A stretch of 64,000 nt of DNA from an uncultured Dehalococcoidia bacterium. GTDB lineage: Bacteria; Chloroflexota; Dehalococcoidia; DSTF01; JACRBR01. The position numbers and the translations under genes were made by a program. Below, piece by piece: positions 16,326 to 30,465 of the stretch (the stretch's first letter is position 1; each line of letters begins with the position of its first letter). The notes beneath the pieces are model-generated. The model was not told the DNA's origin. It did no database searches and saw nothing but the letters and a program-made list of their open reading frames with translations. The stretch is taken from contig CAYJMJ010000008.1 of assembly GCA_964371095.1 (NCBI GenBank), positions 8,278 through 72,277 of the forward strand. Direction: 5' to 3'.

Positions 16326-16757
16326 ATGAAGTCAGCCGTCTTCCTCGCTCTCCTGGCGTTGCCCTTCGCGGCCTGTTTCAGCGCCGAAGCCCGGTCCGTT
16401 CCCGCGCCCGAAGAGATCGATCCGGTCGAGGCGTCGCCGGCGGCCGTGCACGTCAGCGCGACGGACTACCAGTTCAACCTGACGGCTGCGAGCGCGCACG
16501 CCGGCACCATCGACTTCGTGGTCCACAACGACTCGCTGAACGAGCACGAGTTCATGATCGTGCCGATCGAGGGCGGTCGGTACGGCACTCCCATAGGCGA
16601 GATCGAGCCGTTCGGGGGCGGTGAGACATTGGCGCTCCGCGCGCAGCTCCCGCCCGGCAATTATCGGTTCGTCTGCTTGATCATCTCCGTCATCGATGAC
16701 AAACCACGGTCCCACATGTCGCGCGGCATGAACGTCGCGTTTACGGTGACCTCGTGA
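16326..16757 (+). CDS. Cupredoxin (blue-copper) lipoprotein
   Basis: Signal peptide ending in lipobox-like 'FAAC'; ligands His (NEHEF) and C-x12-H-x4-M (CLIISVIDDKPRSHMSRGM). Confidence 0.75.
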   Translation: MKSAVFLALLALPFAACFSAEARSVPAPEEIDPVEASPAAVHVSATDYQFNLTAASAHAGTIDFVVHNDSLNEHEFMIVPIEGGRYGTPIGEIEPFGGGETLALRAQLPPGNYRFVCLIISVIDDKPRSHMSRGMNVAFTVTS

Positions 16758-18475
16758 GACGCCTCTCAACCGTCTTGCGGCACGCGCTGAATCCTCTCGT
16801 CGTCCAGATCGCGACGGTGGCGGTCGCCGGCGTCTCCGTCGCAGGGATCGCGCTCTTCGCCTCCAGCATCGTGGAGAGCAACTCGCGCCTGGCTAACGGC
16901 GACTCGAACGCGGCGCTTCTGGTGGCAGAGATACGGGCGGATGTCGACAGGGTCTCGCTGCTCCGCCTCGACGATGCCCTGACGGACAGTCCCGCATCGG
17001 CCGGAGCGCCGACGCGAATCTCCCTGCAGGATGCGATCGCCGCCCATGACGCGCTCGCCGAAGGCACGTCGGAGGCGGAGCAGCTCCACGCGCTCGTCGG
17101 CTCCGACGTCTCACTTCAGATTCTCGGCGCCGTCGGCGAGGCAACGGACGCATTGCACCGGTACCTGGACGTACAGACGTCGGACGCGCTCGCGACCCTC
17201 GAAATGCGGCTCGATGCGCTCCGCATCCTCACCGCGCACGAGATGCCGCTGCTCACCGCCGACGCCCGGAGCCACCAGGCGACGCTGCGGCGGGCCACCA
17301 ACCTCGCCCGCATCGCAAGCATCATCGCCGCGGCGACGGCCACCGCCCTGATCGCCGGCACGACGCTCGTCATCGGGCGCCGGCTGCGTCACGCGCTCGC
17401 CGCCGCCGAGGACGAGAAGGCGAGGCTGCTCGCAACCACGGCTGCCATGCAGCGCCGCAACGATCAGTTCGCCGCGCTGTATCAGGTGGGCTCGGAGGTC
17501 GGCGAGTCCCTGAACATGCGCTACGTGGTGGACACGACCGTGCGCGAAGCGCGAAAGCTCGTCGGCGCCGACCTCGTGGCGGTGCGGCGCGTCGTAAACG
17601 GCGCACTGCTCCTCGCTGGAACGTCGCAGGAGGCTGGCTCCGACATCACCGGCCTGCGCACGGTCGCCCTCGGCGCCGGCATCGTCGGGCGCGTCGCCAA
17701 GCGCGGCAAGCCGATACGCATCGACAACGGCGCCGAGGTCCGCATGTCGGAGGCCGAGCGCGTCCGCGGGATGGAGTCGGGGATCGTCGTACCTTTGATC
17801 GTGGGCGCTCGGGTCGTCGGCACGCTCGGCTGCTGGTCGCGTCTGCCGGGTCGGTTCGACGCCGATGACGAACGCATTCTCGAGATGATGGCCTCGCAGG
17901 TGGCGACGGCCATCGCCTCGGCAGACACGCACGAGCGGAGCGAACGGGACGCGCACATGGACGCGCTGACCTCGTTGCCCAACCGGCGGCAACTCAGCGA
18001 GGATCTCGTCGGCGTGTGGCACGAAGCAGCTTCGGGCGGCCAGCCGCACGCGATTGCGATGGTCGATATCGACCACTTCAAGCGCTTCAACGACGACTAC
18101 GGCCACCGCGTCGGCGACATCACGCTGCAAAAGGTTGCCGAGGTGCTCAGATCGTCCATCCGGGACACCGATCAGCTGTATCGCTTCGGCGGGGAAGAGT
18201 TCCTGATTGTCTTCGCGAACGTCGGCGGCGAAGTGGCGCTGGGGCTGGCTGAGCGTGCGCGTGCATCCGTCGAGCGCACGCCCCTGACGGGCGAGACGTT
18301 GCAGCCGGTGGGCCCCGTCACGGTCTCGATCGGCATCGCATTGTTCCCTGATCATGGCCCGGACTTCGCGGCGCTGATCGATGTCGCGGACCGCGCCATG
18401 TACGCATCCAAGGAGACCGGCCGCAATCGCGTGACGCTCGCCGGCACGGACTCCGAGCACCTCGCAGCCGCCTGA
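16754..18475 (+). CDS. Membrane diguanylate cyclase (TM-sensor-TM-GAF-GGDEF)
   Basis: 'DALTSLPNRR', 'DIDHFKRFNDDYGH', I-site RDTD, 'RFGGEEF'; GAF region 'GIVGRVAKRG...VPLIVGARVVGTL'; GTG overlaps the cupredoxin TGA. Confidence 0.92.
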   Translation: MRRLSTVLRHALNPLVVQIATVAVAGVSVAGIALFASSIVESNSRLANGDSNAALLVAEIRADVDRVSLLRLDDALTDSPASAGAPTRISLQDAIAAHDALAEGTSEAEQLHALVGSDVSLQILGAVGEATDALHRYLDVQTSDALATLEMRLDALRILTAHEMPLLTADARSHQATLRRATNLARIASIIAAATATALIAGTTLVIGRRLRHALAAAEDEKARLLATTAAMQRRNDQFAALYQVGSEVGESLNMRYVVDTTVREARKLVGADLVAVRRVVNGALLLAGTSQEAGSDITGLRTVALGAGIVGRVAKRGKPIRIDNGAEVRMSEAERVRGMESGIVVPLIVGARVVGTLGCWSRLPGRFDADDERILEMMASQVATAIASADTHERSERDAHMDALTSLPNRRQLSEDLVGVWHEAASGGQPHAIAMVDIDHFKRFNDDYGHRVGDITLQKVAEVLRSSIRDTDQLYRFGGEEFLIVFANVGGEVALGLAERARASVERTPLTGETLQPVGPVTVSIGIALFPDHGPDFAALIDVADRAMYASKETGRNRVTLAGTDSEHLAAA

Positions 18476-19379: not shown

Positions 19380-20054
19380 GTGGACGACGACGAATCCCTG
19401 GAGACACCCGGCCAGGACGCGACGCCAGCCTGGGTGGCCGCGCTTCGCAGCGACGACGGGCTGTTCGTGGCCGACGAGCATCAGCGCATCGTCGCCTGGT
19501 CGCCTTCGGCCGAGGCGGCGCTCGGCTACCGCGCTGAAGAGGTCATCGGGCGGCCCTGCTTCGAGGTAGTGGCCGGCAAGGACATCCGCAGCCACCCCGT
19601 GTGCCGGCCGCACTGCACCGCCGTCACCAACGCGCTGCGCGGCCGCGGCACCGCGCCGTACGACCTCGCCTCCCTCATCAACAAGGAAGGCGAGCGGATC
19701 TGGGTGAACAACACCATCATCGTGGGCCGGGACGACCGAAACCGGCCGCTCATCGTTCACGCGTTCAGGCCGGTGAAGGAGCCGCCGCGGCACACGCCCG
19801 CGACGCGCTTGCCGCCGCGGCCGCGCGCTTCCCGCCGAGCGGACACGCAGCCTGGCGGCCTGAAGCCGCTCAGCCGGCGCGAACTCGAGGCGCTCCGCAT
19901 GCTCGCCGCGGGCCTGAGCACGGCCGAAATCGCCGCGGCAATGACGATAAGCCCCCTTACGGCGAGGAACCACATCAACACGGTGATGCGCAAGCTGGGC
20001 GCCCGCAACCGCGTCGAGTGCTTGCTGGTGGCCGCCGAACGCCGACTAGTCTGA
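19380..20054 (+). CDS. PAS domain + LuxR-type HTH regulator
   Basis: GTG 19380 with GAGG SD; PAS 'IVAWSPSAEAALGYRAEEVIGRPC'; HTH 'LSRRELEALRMLAAGLSTAEIAAAMTISPLTARNHINTVMRKLG'. Confidence 0.9.
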   Translation: MDDDESLETPGQDATPAWVAALRSDDGLFVADEHQRIVAWSPSAEAALGYRAEEVIGRPCFEVVAGKDIRSHPVCRPHCTAVTNALRGRGTAPYDLASLINKEGERIWVNNTIIVGRDDRNRPLIVHAFRPVKEPPRHTPATRLPPRPRASRRADTQPGGLKPLSRRELEALRMLAAGLSTAEIAAAMTISPLTARNHINTVMRKLGARNRVECLLVAAERRLV

Positions 20055-20186: not shown

Positions 20187-21245
20187 ATGAAGCGGCAACT
20201 GGTCCCCGCACTCTTGCTTTGGCTCGCGCTCACCGCCGTGGGCGAGGTCTTGGCCGCCACAGTAGACCTGTACATCGTCCCGAAATCGAACAAGGGCGAG
20301 GAGATCGACTTCGCCTTCCGTTTCCTCGTCTACATGGCGGTACCCGTCTTCACGATGGTCGTGGCCGTGCTCGTCTCGTCGGTCGCCCTACACTCCTCCG
20401 TTGACTTCCCGGAGGAGGACGGTCCGCCCATGCACGGGCGAGGCGCGGCGCCACTGGTCTGGGTGGGCCTCACCTCGTGCCTTGCGGCTGTTGTGATGGT
20501 CTACCCCGGCCTCATCGGGATCCCCCGCGTCGTGCGCCAGACGAGCAACCCTGACGTGCTCGTCAAGGTCGAGGGCGTCCAGTGGACCTGGCTCGTCAGC
20601 TACCCGAACGAAAACATCGACGGCGCGAGAGAGGTCGTTCTCCCCGTCGATTCCACGGTCCGATTCGACATCACCAGTCGTGACGTGCTTCATTCGTTCT
20701 GGGTCCCGTCGTTCTTGCTCAAGATCGACGCGGTGCCAGGCCTGACGACGAGGCTCTCGCTCAAGCCCACGAAGATCGGCTCGTACGACGCGGATCCAAA
20801 CCTGCGCGTGCAGTGCGCGCAGCTCTGCGGGTTGAGCCACTCGCGCATGCAGATGCCGGTTCGCGTCGTCAGCCGAGCCGACTACGATGCCTGGGTGAAG
20901 GAGCAAACCGGTGCTCCCACGGCTGACGTCACGCCCACCGGTCCCGTGACCGAACTGACGATCATCGCGAAGAACATCAAGTGGAACACGGACACGCTGA
21001 CGGCGCCCTCGGGCAGCACGGTGAAGCTCAACATCGACAACCAGGACAATGCGATCCCGCACAACTTCTCGCTCTACGCGAGCGAGCAGGCCGCGTTGAG
21101 CGGCGAGAAGCCGTTGACCACGACCAAGATCCAGTCCGGCCCGCTGCAAGAATCGGTGGTGTTCAACGCACCGGCGGCCGGCACGTATTTCTTCCGGTGT
21201 GACGTGCACCCAACGGCGATGACCGGCACGTTTGTCGTCCAATGA
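20187..21245 (+). CDS. coxB: Heme-copper oxidase subunit II with CuA site and fused C-terminal type-1 cupredoxin domain
   Basis: Two TM helices; 'DVLHSFWVP' and 'CAQLCGLSHSRM' (CuA); extra domain with 'PHNF' and 'YFFRCDVHPTAMTG'. Confidence 0.92.
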   Translation: MKRQLVPALLLWLALTAVGEVLAATVDLYIVPKSNKGEEIDFAFRFLVYMAVPVFTMVVAVLVSSVALHSSVDFPEEDGPPMHGRGAAPLVWVGLTSCLAAVVMVYPGLIGIPRVVRQTSNPDVLVKVEGVQWTWLVSYPNENIDGAREVVLPVDSTVRFDITSRDVLHSFWVPSFLLKIDAVPGLTTRLSLKPTKIGSYDADPNLRVQCAQLCGLSHSRMQMPVRVVSRADYDAWVKEQTGAPTADVTPTGPVTELTIIAKNIKWNTDTLTAPSGSTVKLNIDNQDNAIPHNFSLYASEQAALSGEKPLTTTKIQSGPLQESVVFNAPAAGTYFFRCDVHPTAMTGTFVVQ

Positions 21246-21273: not shown

Positions 21274-23184
21274 ATGACGAGCTCGCCAGACGCGATGGTG
21301 ATGCAGCCTCCGAGTCCCATATCCGCCCTGGTGCCGATCCTGCGCGGCCTCGTGTGGGGCCTCATCGGGTTCGGAATCGGCGCCGGCCTCACTGCCCTGG
21401 CACGGGAAGCGATGGGCGACAGCCCGTGGGCGATCGAGACGAACCTGACGTTCGGCTACATGCTGGGGCTTCCCGGCTGGCTCTTCGGCGTCGGCGTCTG
21501 GGAACGGTGGGGACGCGAATGGTTTGGATGGTCGGTCAAGTCCGAGGAGCCGACGGGGCTGCGCCGATTCCTGGCATTCTCCTTCGACCACAAGGTCATC
21601 GGTATCCAGTACCTGACGACGTTTCTCCTCCTGTTCCTCGTAGCCGGTCTCTTCGCCATGGCAATCCGATACCAGCTGCTGAAGCCTGAAGGTGCGGCGT
21701 TCAGCGACGGCGTGTACAACCGCATCATGAGCATGCACGGCATCATCATGATCGCGGTCGCCGTCGCGTCGGTGATCGGCGGCTTCGGCAACTACTTCAT
21801 CCCGATCATGATCGGCGCGAAGGACGTTGCCTTCCCGCGACTCAACGCACTGACATTCTGGCTCGTGCCGCCCGTCGCCATCCTCCTGCTCGCGTCGCAA
21901 GCCGCAGGCGGCTGGGACGCCGGGTGGACGTCGTATCCGCCACTCAGCCTCCACAACGCCTCGGGCCAGGTGTTCTTCTGCCTGGCGATCATCACGTTCG
22001 GTCTCTCATCGATCCTCGGCGGATTGAACTTCCTGGTGACGATTATTCACCTCCGCGCGCCGGGCATGAGCTGGGGCCGCCTGCCGATCTTCGTCTGGGC
22101 CATGTTCGCCACCTCGATCCTGTCCCTGACGTTCACGCAGTTCTTCGCCGCAGCGATGATGATGGTCCTGATGGAGCGGATCGCCGGATTCGGCTTCTTC
22201 AATGCATCGACGGGCGGCGCGCCGTTGCTGTACCAGCACGTGTTCTGGTTCTATTCCCACCCGGCCGTCTACATCTTCGTGCTGCCGGGCCTCGGCATCA
22301 CGCTCGAGGTGCTCGCCCACTTCTCGCGCAAACCGCTGTTCGCGTACAAATGGGCGGTTGGGGGTCTCCTCGGCATCGTCTCGCTCAGCGGATTGGTGTG
22401 GGCGCACCACATGTTCGCCAGCGGCATGGACGCGAAGCTGCTGTCGCCCTTCCTTGTGTCGACGGAGATCATCTCCATCCCGACCGGCCTCATCTTCCTG
22501 TCGGCGCTGGGCACGATCTGGATGGGCCGCCTCTGGCTGCGCGCACCCATGCTGTTCGCATTGGCTGTGATCTTCAATTTTCTGATCGGCGGCATCACCG
22601 GCATCTTCCTTGCTGATGTTCCGACCGACATCAACGTGCAGGACACGTACTTCGTCGTCGCTCACTTCCATTACACCATCATCGGCGGCGAGATCTTCGC
22701 CCTGTTCGCCGGCGTCTATTACTGGTTCCCGAAGATGTCCGGCCGCATGTACAACGAGAAGCTCGCCCAGCTCCATTTCTGGGTCATGTTCCTCGGATTC
22801 AACTTTGCCTTCATCCCGATGTTCTGGACGGGCCTGCACGGCATGAACCGGCGGATCGCGACGTACCAGCCCGACCTCCAGGGCGTCAATATCTTCATCA
22901 GCATCGCCGCCTTCTCGCTGGGTGCGAGTTTCATCCCGTTCGTGGCGAACATGGTGTACTCGGTAGTCCGCGGGCCGAAGGCGGTCCCCGATCCGTGGCA
23001 CGCACGCTCGCTGGAATGGCAGGTGTCGTCGCCTCCGCCCCTCGAGAACTTCCACGCCATCCCGCTGATCAGCGGCAATCCATATGACTACGGCGTGCGC
23101 GGTGCACCGGCCTACGCGATCGTGCCGATCGCGGGCGGAAGCGGTGAGATCGAGCCGCCAATCGGAGAGGGAACACCGCAATGA
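21274..23184 (+). CDS. coxA: Heme-copper oxygen reductase subunit I, A2-type, with non-canonical K channel
   Basis: 'MHG', 'DVAFPRLN', 'WFYSHPAVY', 'WAHHMF', 'AHFHY', 'GMNRR'; SD GAGG before ATG 21274. Confidence 0.95.
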   Translation: MTSSPDAMVMQPPSPISALVPILRGLVWGLIGFGIGAGLTALAREAMGDSPWAIETNLTFGYMLGLPGWLFGVGVWERWGREWFGWSVKSEEPTGLRRFLAFSFDHKVIGIQYLTTFLLLFLVAGLFAMAIRYQLLKPEGAAFSDGVYNRIMSMHGIIMIAVAVASVIGGFGNYFIPIMIGAKDVAFPRLNALTFWLVPPVAILLLASQAAGGWDAGWTSYPPLSLHNASGQVFFCLAIITFGLSSILGGLNFLVTIIHLRAPGMSWGRLPIFVWAMFATSILSLTFTQFFAAAMMMVLMERIAGFGFFNASTGGAPLLYQHVFWFYSHPAVYIFVLPGLGITLEVLAHFSRKPLFAYKWAVGGLLGIVSLSGLVWAHHMFASGMDAKLLSPFLVSTEIISIPTGLIFLSALGTIWMGRLWLRAPMLFALAVIFNFLIGGITGIFLADVPTDINVQDTYFVVAHFHYTIIGGEIFALFAGVYYWFPKMSGRMYNEKLAQLHFWVMFLGFNFAFIPMFWTGLHGMNRRIATYQPDLQGVNIFISIAAFSLGASFIPFVANMVYSVVRGPKAVPDPWHARSLEWQVSSPPPLENFHAIPLISGNPYDYGVRGAPAYAIVPIAGGSGEIEPPIGEGTPQ

Positions 23185-23399
23185 GCAAGCCGCATGGCGA
23201 GAAGAGCGCATCCCGTATCGGCTGGTGGATCTTCATCGGCCTCGCGATCGTCACGCTGATCGAGTACATCGTCGCGGTTGCACTCTCGATCAACCTGTTC
23301 TTCCTCGCCCAGATCGCCGTGCTCAAGGCCGGGCTCATCGCCGTGTACTTCATGCACATCGGTCGCGCGTTCGAGCGCACCGGGGAGGACGAGGACTAG
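23181..23399 (+). CDS. Cytochrome oxidase small subunit IV-like, 2 TM
   Basis: 72 aa; 'IAVLKAGLIAVYFMHI' matches the prokaryotic subunit IV pattern; ATGA overlap with coxA. Confidence 0.8.
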   Translation: MSKPHGEKSASRIGWWIFIGLAIVTLIEYIVAVALSINLFFLAQIAVLKAGLIAVYFMHIGRAFERTGEDED

Positions 23400-23975
23400 A
23401 TGGCCGTCGCGACGCTGCACCAGGAACACGCCGTCCACCACGAGGAGCCGCAGCGCCCCGCGATGAACCAGCTCGGCCTCTGGCTCTTCTTCCTGTCCGA
23501 GTCATTCCTGTTTGGCGCTCTGCTGTCGGCGCGATTCTATCTCGCGGGCACCGACCGGCCGCACGTCAACCAGCTGCTTGGACTCGCTATCACGGCGATC
23601 CTGCTGGTCAGCAGCCTTACCGCCTACAGGTCTGAATCGTCGATCGCCCGGGGCGATCGGAAGGCATTCCTTCGTTACCTGCTGGCGACAATTGCGCTCG
23701 GCATCATCTTCGCAGTCGGCGTGGGATACGAGTGGTCGACTGCCGAGTTCCACCGATCGGAGCCGTACGGCGCGGCCTTCTTTTCCATGACCGGGCTGCA
23801 CGCGTCACACGTGGTCAGCGGCGTGGTGATGCTGGGGATGGTCTACTACCTCGGCGCACGAGGCCACTTCTCGGCGGATAGTCACTGGGGCGTCGAGGCC
23901 GTCATCAAGTACTGGCACTTCGTCGACGTCGTCTGGGTGTTCTTCTACCCTGCGCTCTACCTGATCAAGCTGTAG
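23400..23975 (+). CDS. coxC: Heme-copper oxidase subunit III
   Basis: 'GLWLFFLSESFLFGAL', 'FFSMTGLHASHV', 'YWHFVDVVW'. Confidence 0.92.
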   Translation: MAVATLHQEHAVHHEEPQRPAMNQLGLWLFFLSESFLFGALLSARFYLAGTDRPHVNQLLGLAITAILLVSSLTAYRSESSIARGDRKAFLRYLLATIALGIIFAVGVGYEWSTAEFHRSEPYGAAFFSMTGLHASHVVSGVVMLGMVYYLGARGHFSADSHWGVEAVIKYWHFVDVVWVFFYPALYLIKL

Positions 23976-26866: not shown

Positions 26867-28567
26867 ATGGCTGTCTACGAGCACGACATCCTCGTCATCG
26901 GAGCCGGCCTCGCCGGCATGCGCGCCGCCATCGCCGCCCAACAGATGGGTGCCGACGTGGCGATGATCTCGAAGGTCCATCCCGTCCGCTCTCACTCGAA
27001 TGCCGCACAGGGCGGCATCAACGGACCCGGCGTTGGCGAAGACGGCGGTCCGTGGGAGGAGCACGCCTTCGAGACGACCAAGGCCTCGGACTACCTGGGC
27101 GACCAGGATGCCATCGAGGTCCTCGCCAAAGAGGGCGGTCGCGAGGTGCTCCAGACCGAGCACTGGGGCGTCGTCTACAGCCGCAAGCCCGATGGCACAA
27201 TGGCGGTTCGCCGCTTCGGCGGCATGGGGAAGGCGCGGACCTTCTTCGTCGGCGCGATCACCGGACAGGCGATCCTCCACGTGCTCTACGAGCAACTGAT
27301 GAAGCCCAGTATCTACCGGGCGATGCGCAACTACGAGGAGTGGTTCGTCACCAGCCTGATCATGGATGAGGGGCAGTGTCGCGGCGCCGTCGCCATGAAC
27401 ATCCGTACCGGCGAACTCCACGCGATCACCGCCAAGGCAACGATCGTCTGCACGGGCGGCCTCGGCCGCGTCTACGAGCCGTCGACCAACGCCCTCATCT
27501 GCACGGGCGACGGCATCTCGCTGTCCTACCGGGCGGGCGCGCCCATCATGGACATGGAGATGGTCCAGATTCACCCCACGTCCCTTAAGGGCTCGGGCGT
27601 GCTCATCACCGAGGGTGCGCGCGGCGAAGGCGCCTACCTCCTCAACAAGGACGGCGAGCGCTTCATGTCGAAGTACGCGCCCAACATGATGGAGCTGGCC
27701 TCCCGTGACGTCGTCTCACGCGCCGAGCAGACCGAGATCGACGAGGGGCGTGGCGTCGACGGCTGCGTGTTCCTCGACATGCGCCACCTCGGCGAGCAGC
27801 TGATCAAGGAGCGGCTCGAGGAGATCTACGAGATCGCGCGCGACCTCGTGAACATCGACATCACGAAGGAGATGCTGCCGATCTTGCCTGGCATCCACTA
27901 CTCGATGGGCGGCGTCAAGACCGACGTCGACGGCCGGACGGCCGTGCCCGGTCTCTACTCCGCCGGCGAGGCCGCCTGCGTCAGCGTGCACGGCGCCAAC
28001 CGCGTCGGCGCGAACTCGCTCCTCGACACGCTCGTCTTCGGCCGCAAAGCCGCCGAGCACGCAGTGCCATGGCTCAAGGGGAAGACCTTCAAGCCGATTC
28101 CCGAAAGCGTGGTCGAGAAGGACCGGCAGATGATTCGGGGTGTGCTCGACCGGCCGCTCAATGGCGATCGGATCGCCAAGATCCGCCGCGACATGGGCGT
28201 CTCGATGAGCGCGAACGTCGGCCTGTTCCGCACTCCGGAGCGCATCGAGCAGCAGCTGGCGCAGCTCAAGGAACTCCGCGCGCGCTATGAGAAGGTCGGC
28301 GTGGAGGACAAGGGCAAGGTGTTCAACACCGACCTGTTGTTCCACATCGAACTGGGCTACATGCTCGACTGCGCCGAGATGATCACGAAGAGCGCACTCG
28401 AGCGGAAGGAGAGCCGCGGCGCCCACACGCGCCTGGACTACCCGAAGCGTGACGATGAGAACTGGCTCAAGCACATCGTGCTCACCAGGCAGTCCGACGG
28501 CAGCGAGAAGATGAGCTACACACCTGTGACGATCACGCAGTGGCAGCCGCAGGAAAGGAAGTACTAG
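26867..28567 (+). CDS. sdhA: Succinate dehydrogenase/fumarate reductase flavoprotein
   Basis: GAGLAG, '[10 protein letters not shown]' (covalent-FAD His), 'QIHPT', 'ITEGARGEG', '[11 protein letters not shown]', 'HYSMGG', '[11 protein letters not shown]'. Confidence 0.96.
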
Positions 28568-29569
28568 GTGAAGATCAAGCTCAACGTCAAGCGGACTGAC
28601 TCTGAATCCGGCAAGACAGGCTACAGCGACTACGAAATCGAGGCGCCTGAGAGCACGACGCTGCTCGACGCCCTGATCCAGGTGCGCGAGTACGAGGACG
28701 GCTCGCTCGCGCTCCGCTGCTCGTGCCGAAGCGCGATCTGCGGCTCTTGCGCCATGCGCGTCGACGGCCGCGCGCGCCTCGCCTGCCGCGCCAAGGTGAT
28801 CGCCATCACCGGCGGCGACGAGAACCACGTGATGAAGGTCGAGCCGATGGGCAACATGCCGGTGATCAAGGACCTGGTCAGCGACATGGAGACGTTCTGG
28901 TCGAAGATGCGCTCGGTCGACCCGTACCTGCGGCCCGTGGGCCAGGAGCCGACGGACGAGTACCGCGTCCCGAACGAGACGATGATCGACCTGACGCACA
29001 CCATGAACTGCATCATGTGTGGCGCCTGCGTCAGCGACTGCACGGTACTCGAGGTCGACAAGAGCTTTACGGCGCCGGCAGCGCTCGCCAAGGCGTACCG
29101 GGTCGCCGCCGACCCTCGCGACGGCCACACGCACGAGCGCCTGACGAAACTCAGCGAGGCGGGCGGCATCTGGGACTGCACGCGCTGCAACATGTGCGTC
29201 GAGGTCTGCCCCAAGGGCGTCGCCCCGATGAACCGCATCCTCCAACTACGCGAAATGGCGATCGAGGAGGGCCTGACGAACAACACCGGCGCCCGCCACA
29301 CCGCCATCTTCACGAAGTCGATTACCGACGGTGGCCGCCTCAACGAGATCTGGATGGTTCCCGGCTCGGTCGGCATGTTCAACCTGCCCCGCATCCTCAC
29401 GGAGATGCCGGGCGCGCTCAAGATGGCGCGCGCCGGCAAGCTGCCGTTCAACCAGCTCATTCCGCCGGGCATGCCCGGATCGCACAAGATGCACGGGATG
29501 GAGCGGGTGCGCAACATCATTCGCAAGTCCAGCTCGTTGAAGGCGCCCAAACCGGAGGTAACGAAATAA
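28568..29569 (+). CDS. sdhB: Succinate dehydrogenase Fe-S subunit, type-E signature
   Basis: 'CRSAICGSC' [2Fe-2S]; 'CIMCGACVSDC'; third motif 'CTRCNMCVEVCP' has four Cys. Confidence 0.95.
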   Translation: MKIKLNVKRTDSESGKTGYSDYEIEAPESTTLLDALIQVREYEDGSLALRCSCRSAICGSCAMRVDGRARLACRAKVIAITGGDENHVMKVEPMGNMPVIKDLVSDMETFWSKMRSVDPYLRPVGQEPTDEYRVPNETMIDLTHTMNCIMCGACVSDCTVLEVDKSFTAPAALAKAYRVAADPRDGHTHERLTKLSEAGGIWDCTRCNMCVEVCPKGVAPMNRILQLREMAIEEGLTNNTGARHTAIFTKSITDGGRLNEIWMVPGSVGMFNLPRILTEMPGALKMARAGKLPFNQLIPPGMPGSHKMHGMERVRNIIRKSSSLKAPKPEVTK

Positions 29570-30465
29570 TGGCACTCAAGTACGCGTTCTGGCCCGGCTG
29601 TGTCGCGAAGGGCGCCGCCCCCGAACTGTACGTATCGATGAACCGCGTCGCGAAGGAGCTCGGCATCGAGCTCGTGGAGCTGGACCAGGCGGCCTGCACC
29701 GGCGCCGGCGTCATCCAGGAACAGAACCCGGAAATGGCCGATGCGCTGAACGCGCGCACCTTCGCCATGGCGCAGCGGCTCGGGCTGCCGCTGATGAACA
29801 TCTGCTCCACCTGCCAGGGCATCGAGAGCATCGTGCAGGACAAGCTGGCGAAGGACCCCGGCTACCTCGACAAGGTCAACGCCATCCTCGCCGATGAGGG
29901 GCTGACCTACACCCCGGGACTCGCGGTCAAGAACTTCCTCTGGGTGCTGGTGGAAGACCTCGGGCTCGATAAGCTCAAGGCCGCCATCAAGCGGCCGCTC
30001 AGCGGCCTGCGCGTCGGGCCGTTCTACGGATGCTACATCCTTCGCCCCAGCTCGATTCTGGGCAAGGAGGAGCACCCGGGCCGCGACCACTACCTGGAGG
30101 ACGTCATCGCCGCGCTCGGCGCGACCGTCGTCGACTACGAGGGCGCCAAGAAGTGCTGCGGCTTCCCGATCCTGACGATCAACCGGGAGAATTCGCTCAC
30201 GCAGACGGGCAACCACATCCACGAGGCGCAGGATCTCGGCGCAGACGCGCTCGTGTCCCCGTGCCCGCTCTGCCACTTGAACCTCGACGCGCAGCAGCCG
30301 GCGGCGAAGGCCGTGACGAAGCACGACATCGACCTGCCCATCCTGCACCTGCCGCAACTGGTCGGACTTGCGCTGGGCATCGATCCGAAGGAGATGAGGC
30401 TCGACCACCACGTCGTCTCGACGCAGAAGCTGCTCGACAAGATGACAGCTCCAGCCCGCGCGTAG
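29569..30465 (+). CDS. HdrB-like CCG-domain subunit; anchor of type-E succinate:quinone oxidoreductase
   Basis: 'WPGC', 'ACTGAG', 'CSTC', 'FYGC', 'KCCG', 'CPLCHLNLD'; TAATG overlap with sdhB. Confidence 0.9.
   Translation: MALKYAFWPGCVAKGAAPELYVSMNRVAKELGIELVELDQAACTGAGVIQEQNPEMADALNARTFAMAQRLGLPLMNICSTCQGIESIVQDKLAKDPGYLDKVNAILADEGLTYTPGLAVKNFLWVLVEDLGLDKLKAAIKRPLSGLRVGPFYGCYILRPSSILGKEEHPGRDHYLEDVIAALGATVVDYEGAKKCCGFPILTINRENSLTQTGNHIHEAQDLGADALVSPCPLCHLNLDAQQPAAKAVTKHDIDLPILHLPQLVGLALGIDPKEMRLDHHVVSTQKLLDKMTAPARA

Follow-up and report, generated by a model that had tools for sequence, protein, structure and literature searches.

Free blue copper proteins can take the place of cytochrome c, and in the caa3 oxidases cytochrome c itself is tethered. 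The archaeal blue-copper partners of oxidases include the sulfocyanin SoxE in the SoxM complex and the halocyanin associated with the ba3 oxidase of Natronomonas, and the auracyanins are high-potential carriers in chains using alternative complex III. In the three-domain copper nitrite reductases a cupredoxin or a cytochrome c is tethered to the enzyme (e.g. HdNIR of Hyphomicrobium and RpNiR of Ralstonia). Auracyanin has been described as the acceptor of alternative complex III (PMC5826079). AcoP is a cupredoxin partner of the aa3 oxidase of Acidithiobacillus ferrooxidans, with its cup gene lying directly upstream of coxB (PMC10654088, PMC10804444), and in Ca. Angelarchaeales two-domain blue copper proteins are encoded just after coxB (PMC9038741). 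The present analysis concerns a coxB gene in a 64-kb stretch of DNA from an uncultured Dehalococcoidia bacterium (contig CAYJMJ010000008.1). It encodes an oxidase subunit II that continues, beyond its CuA domain, into a type-1 cupredoxin domain. With a probability of about 0.7 we consider that this domain is an electron relay to CuA which replaces, in an oxidase of the A2 type, the haem c domain of the caa3 enzymes.

The whole 64-kb stretch, about 2% of a genome, is called the window; coordinates are window positions and residues follow the numbering of the CoxB protein. The gene and its parts are the following (AF2, AlphaFold2; pLDDT, predicted local distance difference test).

20187..21245, + strand: coxB, oxidase subunit II with C-terminal type-1 cupredoxin, 352 amino acids (aa) plus stop
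20187..20534, + strand: N-terminal membrane part, residues 1-116 (from AF2 secondary structure)
20547..20906, + strand: CuA cupredoxin domain, residues 121-240 (from Pfam, alignment and codon check)
20907..20945, + strand: flexible linker, residues 241-253, TGAPTADVTPTGP (from low pLDDT and low conservation)
20946..21242, + strand: type-1 (blue) copper cupredoxin domain, residues ~254-352 (from model and Pfam limits)

The ATG at 20187 and the stop at 21245 agree in independent gene calls on 23 metagenome contigs. Pfam matches to COX2 (residues 148-226, E 1.8e-16), Cupredoxin_1 (residues 255-351, E 2.8e-10) and Copper-bind (residues 260-352, E 1.3e-5) were obtained, and all of them exceed the Pfam gathering scores. 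The score against PF00116 was 60.5 (threshold 22), and the NCBIfam model TIGR02866 was passed marginally, with 149.3 bits for a cut-off of 147.7. Helices are predicted in the AF2 model at residues 2-25, 35-69 and 87-116, the first of which is predicted to be a signal peptide or an extra anchor; with the membrane topology that this suggests, the CuA domain would lie outside the cell.

Each ligand codon in coxB was inspected singly. The CuA pattern H...C-x3-C-x3-H-x2-M is complete, the ligands being H169 (20691-20693), C210 (20814-20816), C214 (20826-20828), H218 (20838-20840) and M221 (20847-20849), and both W133 and W135 of the WxW tryptophan motif of this domain are invariant in the alignment of homologues. 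The type-1 ligands are H292 (21060-21062, in PHNF), C338 (21198-21200), H341 (21207-21209) and M345 (21219-21221). The last three sit in CDVHPTAM, which has the form C-x2-H-x3-M, and N293 directly follows H292. The scan of the whole protein gave no CxxCH. In the CuA loop the window protein has Q212 (CAQLC, 20820-20822), where Glu (CAELC) is the family consensus and the residue of most CoxB proteins.

A search of 5.8 billion proteins returned at least 120 relatives of CoxB with 47-94% identity, 119 of them complete. Among the matches listed, all 119 complete homologues retain CuA together with the downstream C-x2-H-x2/3-M loop and none has a CxxCH. Two variants of the type-1 loop occur, C-x2-H-x3-M and C-x2-H-x2-M. 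In an alignment of 58 sequences (47-94% identity) all nine copper ligands of the CuA and type-1 sites are invariant, and conservation of N293, next to the first type-1 His, is 90% or higher. Since the ligands are invariant in the 58 sequences and kept in the 119 homologues, the type-1 motif is no chance match. The mean column identity is 0.62 in the cupredoxin domain, 0.61 in the transmembrane part and 0.37 in the linker, which varies from 9 to 19 residues among the homologues and is rich in Ala, Pro, Thr and Gly. A conserved cupredoxin behind an unconserved linker is what would be expected of a functional domain held by a flexible tether. An earlier note on this DNA, made from the letters alone, had described the reading frame, its limits and its motifs at 20187-21245, a full type-1 ligand set in the C-terminal domain and a lack of CxxCH, and all of this holds. 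The linker and the domain of about 100 aa that it described are both present as well, with the limits of the linker corrected to about 13 residues (241-253).

The full-length AF2 model of CoxB has a mean pLDDT of 87.4 and contains two beta-sandwich domains, and its confidence falls only in the linker (pLDDT below 50 at residues 244-246). The best fold match of the full protein in the PDB is 2yev_B, subunit II of the Thermus thermophilus caa3 oxidase (30% identity), and this match is limited to the membrane and CuA parts. When the C-terminal domain was modelled by itself, it reached a pLDDT of 97.1 and showed eight strands in a Greek-key beta-sandwich. It had 449 fold matches in the PDB at E <= 1e-3, and the top Foldseek matches were the auracyanins 6kol, 1qhq and 2aan (template modelling score, TM, 0.77-0.83; probability 1.0), followed by amicyanin, AcoP, rusticyanin and azurin. 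A PDB sequence search gave the same names with weak E-values, and the auracyanins were again the closest (E 6e-5 to 2e-4). The auracyanins, which the earlier note had named as blue-copper carriers of Chloroflexus, are the nearest solved structures of this domain. Fold, ligands and the His-Asn motif together support its assignment as a canonical type-1 cupredoxin of the PF00127 / PF13473 group, which would be expected to bind copper.

The remaining subunits of the oxidase are encoded directly downstream.

21274..23184, + strand: coxA, subunit I, 636 aa, A2-type (FWFYSHPAVY)
23181..23399, + strand: coxD, small subunit IV, 72 aa, COX4_pro
23400..23975, + strand: coxC, subunit III, 191 aa

The gene order coxB-coxA-coxD-coxC is kept in all contexts seen. 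A2 oxidases are marked in helix VI of subunit I by a Tyr-Ser motif, YSHPxV, which stands in for the Glu of the XGHPEV motif. The FWFYSHPAVY of CoxA aligns with FWFYSHPTVY of the Thermus caa3 oxidase, and the best solved match of CoxA is 2yev_A, the Thermus caa3 subunit I/III (E 5e-131). Judged by this motif, the window oxidase is an A2-type haem-copper oxygen reductase, and YSHPAV and the match to 2yev_A agree with its earlier description as an A2-type enzyme like those of Thermus and Rhodothermus.

The C-terminal parts of the 80 closest CoxB genes in GTDB (one genome per species) were compared, and the tail after the CuA domain took one of three forms: a bare end of about 22 aa, a cytochrome c domain with CxxCH (105-144 aa) or a cupredoxin (125-131 aa). 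The cupredoxin tail is present at six full-length loci (L005-L009 and L012), and an additional C-terminal fragment of a fused CoxB (L039) matches residues 196-351. A2-type coxA genes were found downstream of CoxB with each of the three tails; among the close relatives 51 of the 54 coxA genes recovered are of the YS type and the remaining three have GHPEV. As the three tails share one C-terminal position, the cupredoxin occupies the exact place of the caa3 haem c. The architecture of a "copper analogue of caa3", as the earlier note put it, is thus well supported by the A2-type CoxA, by the match to Thermus caa3 and by the three tails at one position, while the electron feed to CuA implied in that phrase is what we infer.

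In the relay that we favour, the tethered blue-copper centre would take single electrons, at the outer membrane face, from an upstream donor. This could be a c-type cytochrome, or it could be a quinol-oxidising complex that delivers its electrons either itself or by way of a cupredoxin of the same family, free or lipid-anchored. The type-1 centre would then pass the electron to CuA in the neighbouring domain, a transfer that is probably competent in this direction, and from there the usual path through haem a to haem a3-CuB and O2 would be followed. The tether would hold the carrier at the oxidase, as it does in caa3. Some findings weigh against such a relay. A donor was found neither in the window nor at nine related loci, and in the nine contexts examined no conserved donor gene lies beside the operon. 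The window sequence was present in no RNA runs of the expression data searched, and the predicted TM score of the full-length CoxB model is only 0.72. Moreover many close relatives among the 80 CoxB genes are without any tail, so that the cupredoxin is not obligatory in this oxidase clade.

As a possible supplier of electrons the earlier note had named a cupredoxin encoded at 16326-16757, and this proposal had to be abandoned. The protein falls below the Pfam cut-off and resembles the N-terminal domain of EfeO; among 16 close homologues, two have Ser at the position of Cys117 and four have Asp at that of His130. This EfeO-N-like lipoprotein is a poor candidate donor because the type-1 site is not retained. 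It is confined to the closest relatives and is unrelated to a 142-aa protein encoded upstream of coxB in L090, a locus whose family member is 51% identical. The stop of its gene and the start of a GAF-GGDEF diguanylate cyclase gene (16754-18475) overlap, and the pair, which is kept in close relatives, may be a metal- or redox-sensing unit.

The proposal that the fusion provides an entry route free of cytochrome c is not upheld either. In the 64-kb window, about 2% of the genome, no c-type cytochromes and no second copy of the cupredoxin module were found. The sole CxxCH in a plausible coding frame of the window (G+C at third codon positions, GC3, 0.69) belongs to a cysteine-rich (CCG) succinate dehydrogenase subunit. 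A window of this size does not carry such a claim, and the L090 operon is flanked by multihaem cytochrome genes. There, the operon is directly preceded by NrfC-like, NrfD and multihaem cytochrome genes and has a further multihaem cytochrome gene downstream; the flanks (L090:3255-9030 and L090:14933-16585) also hold two NHL-repeat proteins. Among the contexts examined NrfC/NrfD and multihaem cytochromes were seen only in L090, where these genes may form a quinol-linked module.

The multihaem cytochromes and the NrfCD module that adjoin the L090 operon also accord with a different role, in which the tethered cupredoxin is the entry for lithotrophic or extracellular electrons (e.g. from Fe(II) or Mn(II) oxidation), like rusticyanin and AcoP of Acidithiobacillus, and no relay in an ordinary quinol-to-oxygen chain. 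Both AcoP and rusticyanin rank high among the fold and sequence matches of the C-terminal domain, although rusticyanin is outmatched by the auracyanins in the fold search. The organism comes from sediment and groundwater, the window sequence having been detected in metagenomes of both. However, neither Cyc2-like nor other iron-oxidation genes were found near the operon in the window and the eight other contexts; the neighbours of the operon are ordinary heterotroph genes, and a succinate dehydrogenase is encoded close by in the window. A lithotrophic entry thus appears unlikely.

An even smaller chance is given to a role off the catalytic path, in which the domain would bind copper as a store or chaperone for CuA/CuB assembly, or would form a structural cap over CuA. 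Cupredoxin-like folds serve copper handling in some systems, and the close relatives that have no tail are evidently functional. Nevertheless, the invariant His-Cys-His-Met set with its adjacent Asn is the signature of a redox type-1 site, dedicated assembly genes (SCO1, Caa3_CtaG) adjoin related operons, and the same module is found on dehydrogenases which have no CuA to assemble. Finally, an artefact, in which a missed stop codon or a frameshift joined coxB to a separate cupredoxin gene, found nothing in its favour and is effectively excluded because the uninterrupted open reading frame recurs on 23 contigs from independent assemblies, the fusion is present in 119 distinct homologues among the matches listed, down to 47% identity, and it is found in GTDB genomes including a closed chromosome (OY969567.1, from a metagenome-assembled genome, MAG; CoxB 72% identical).

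The fused CoxB proteins are labelled as Chloroflexota (Dehalococcoidia, "Chloroflexia" and unclassified MAGs). Three MAGs labelled Actinomycetota (L008, L009 and L039), with contigs of 73-76% G+C, carry them as well, which reflects either lateral spread beyond Chloroflexota or a binning or label issue. In a rough neighbour-joining tree of the CuA core (about 160 residues, no support values) fused and unfused sequences are interspersed, which may hint at several origins of the fusion.

The solution is a recurrent one, since a second and separate CoxB family, with an A1-type partner (GHPEV), also carries one or two cupredoxin domains. These proteins have about 370-500 aa and consist of COX2_TM, COX2 and cupredoxin, and Chloroflexota and Ca. 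Limnocylindrales are among their labels. Of the 119 relatives among the matches listed, 118 have a tail containing one type-1 loop or more (one loop in 117, two in 1), and CxxCH is present in 0 of these 119. In one operon of this kind, L089, CoxB has two tandem cupredoxin domains and a 399-aa protein joins a subunit-IV-like segment (PF12270) to a further cupredoxin (features at L089:9087-10586 and L089:13326-14525); CtaA-CtaB and Caa3_CtaG genes adjoin it. Going by sequence matches, the CoxB-cupredoxin architecture occurs commonly in metagenomes and in no fewer than two CoxB families (A2 and A1). The fused proteins are always annotated merely as "cytochrome c oxidase subunit II".

The cupredoxin domain itself (106 residues) was scored against 1.84 billion cluster representatives, and it had 2213 relatives at E <= 1e-3, 586 of them at E <= 1e-10. 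The best matches are non-oxidase proteins, which fall into four groups. The closest have 2-5 tandem copies in 200-650 aa (P0121, P0122, P0128 and others, compared with window 20925-21242) and may be multi-copper electron "wires" or carriers. In the others the module stands at the C-terminus of pyrroloquinoline quinone (PQQ) dehydrogenase propellers (P0231, P0259), of a NirK-like two-domain copper oxidase annotated as a nitrite reductase (P0238), and of DUF4399 proteins (P0240, P0261). In other lineages this C-terminal place in such redox enzymes is often taken by a cytochrome c domain. The module is found free as well, in proteins with a lipoprotein signal or one membrane anchor, and these are plausible partners of the oxidase. 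Since it is fused to several periplasmic redox enzymes and is also found free, the module behaves as an electron-transfer module.

This leads to a broader proposal that we offer with considerable doubt, namely that uncultured Chloroflexota run their high-potential, outward-facing electron transport on one mobile cupredoxin module and not on c-type cytochromes. The module would serve on A2 and A1 oxidases (in one or two copies), on the subunit-IV-like protein, on PQQ dehydrogenases and on the NirK-like enzyme, in arrays of 2-5 domains and as lipid-anchored carriers. If this were true, some lineages would have a respiratory periphery that is largely independent of haem c and spares iron.

One further feature precedes the operon.

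19380..20054, + strand: PAS-LuxR (GerE) regulator gene, directly upstream of coxB

Its product possibly regulates the cox operon, and PAS and/or GerE genes also adjoin the operon in the related loci L085, L087 and L088. In CoxA an N-terminal extension of about 100 aa with two hydrophobic stretches stands before the COX1 domain (21274-21580). It was considered as a feature specific to the fusion and rejected, as it is shared through the A2 clade of Chloroflexota and Actinomycetota and is found with all three CoxB tail types. At 26867-30465 lies a succinate dehydrogenase/fumarate reductase cluster which encodes a flavoprotein, an Fe-S subunit and a cysteine-rich CCG-domain (HdrB-like) subunit; within these limits there is no obvious cytochrome b anchor gene, and the CCG-domain subunit is there instead.

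Whether the fusion was already common and characterised had been left as a question in the earlier note. It is common in sequence databases, and no characterisation was found in the literature searched. The full-text literature searched, from which subscription-only journals are mostly absent, contained no description of a CoxB-cupredoxin fusion, although a brief mention in a review of oxidase diversity is possible. As far as we have found, an A2-type oxidase that bears a tethered blue-copper domain instead of haem c is uncharacterised. If the type-1 copper does feed CuA, the tether would unite the idea of the free cupredoxin with that of the tethered cytochrome c, and the protein would be a natural single-polypeptide system for copper-to-copper electron transfer from a type-1 site to CuA. 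The fusion is frequent in abundant uncultured Chloroflexota of soil, sediment and groundwater and is invisible in annotation. Because it is annotated only as subunit II, metabolic reconstructions may mis-assign the electron donor of the oxidase; they may also overlook a copper dependence, or a saving of iron, in the respiration of these Chloroflexota. The fusion would moreover be one part of a wider use of a single cupredoxin module.

Compared with the known systems, the window enzyme is closest in build to the caa3 oxidases of Thermus thermophilus (PDB 2YEV) and Rhodothermus marinus. All have an A2-type subunit I with the YS motif, and in all of them subunit II bears an extra one-electron redox domain C-terminal to CuA. 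In caa3, however, this domain is a haem c, whereas in the window CoxB it is a type-1 cupredoxin and CxxCH is absent. Subunits I and III are fused in the Thermus enzyme and encoded by separate genes in the window, and the window operon differs also in having a COX4_pro subunit. Although built like one, the window enzyme is therefore not a caa3 oxidase, as the CxxCH haem c domain is lacking.

The auracyanins A and B of Chloroflexus aurantiacus and the auracyanin of Roseiflexus castenholzii provide the closest solved folds (2AAN, 1QHQ and 6KOL); they come from the same phylum and have type-1 His-Cys-His-Met sites. Nevertheless they are only 24-25% identical to the window domain, and the ligand loop of auracyanin A has two more residues between Cys and His (CTVPGHYPLM, against C-x2-H-x3-M). 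Moreover they are free membrane-anchored proteins whereas the window domain is fused to an oxidase, so that it is by definition not an auracyanin. AcoP resembles it in being a single-domain cupredoxin whose gene accompanies those of the A-type oxidase to which it is dedicated, and it is a good fold match; it differs as a separate polypeptide with an unusual green copper site that works in an acidophilic iron-oxidising chain.

With the archaeal blue-copper partners the window system shares the use of a copper protein which replaces cytochrome c as the donor of CuA and is often encoded beside the oxidase, but those partners are separate genes and proteins, archaeal, and members of other cupredoxin subfamilies. 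The three-domain copper nitrite reductases offer a parallel of another kind, since there too a donor is fused within one enzyme family either as a cupredoxin or as a cytochrome c. In that case the acceptor is the type-1 copper of the reductase, whereas in the window oxidase it would be CuA.

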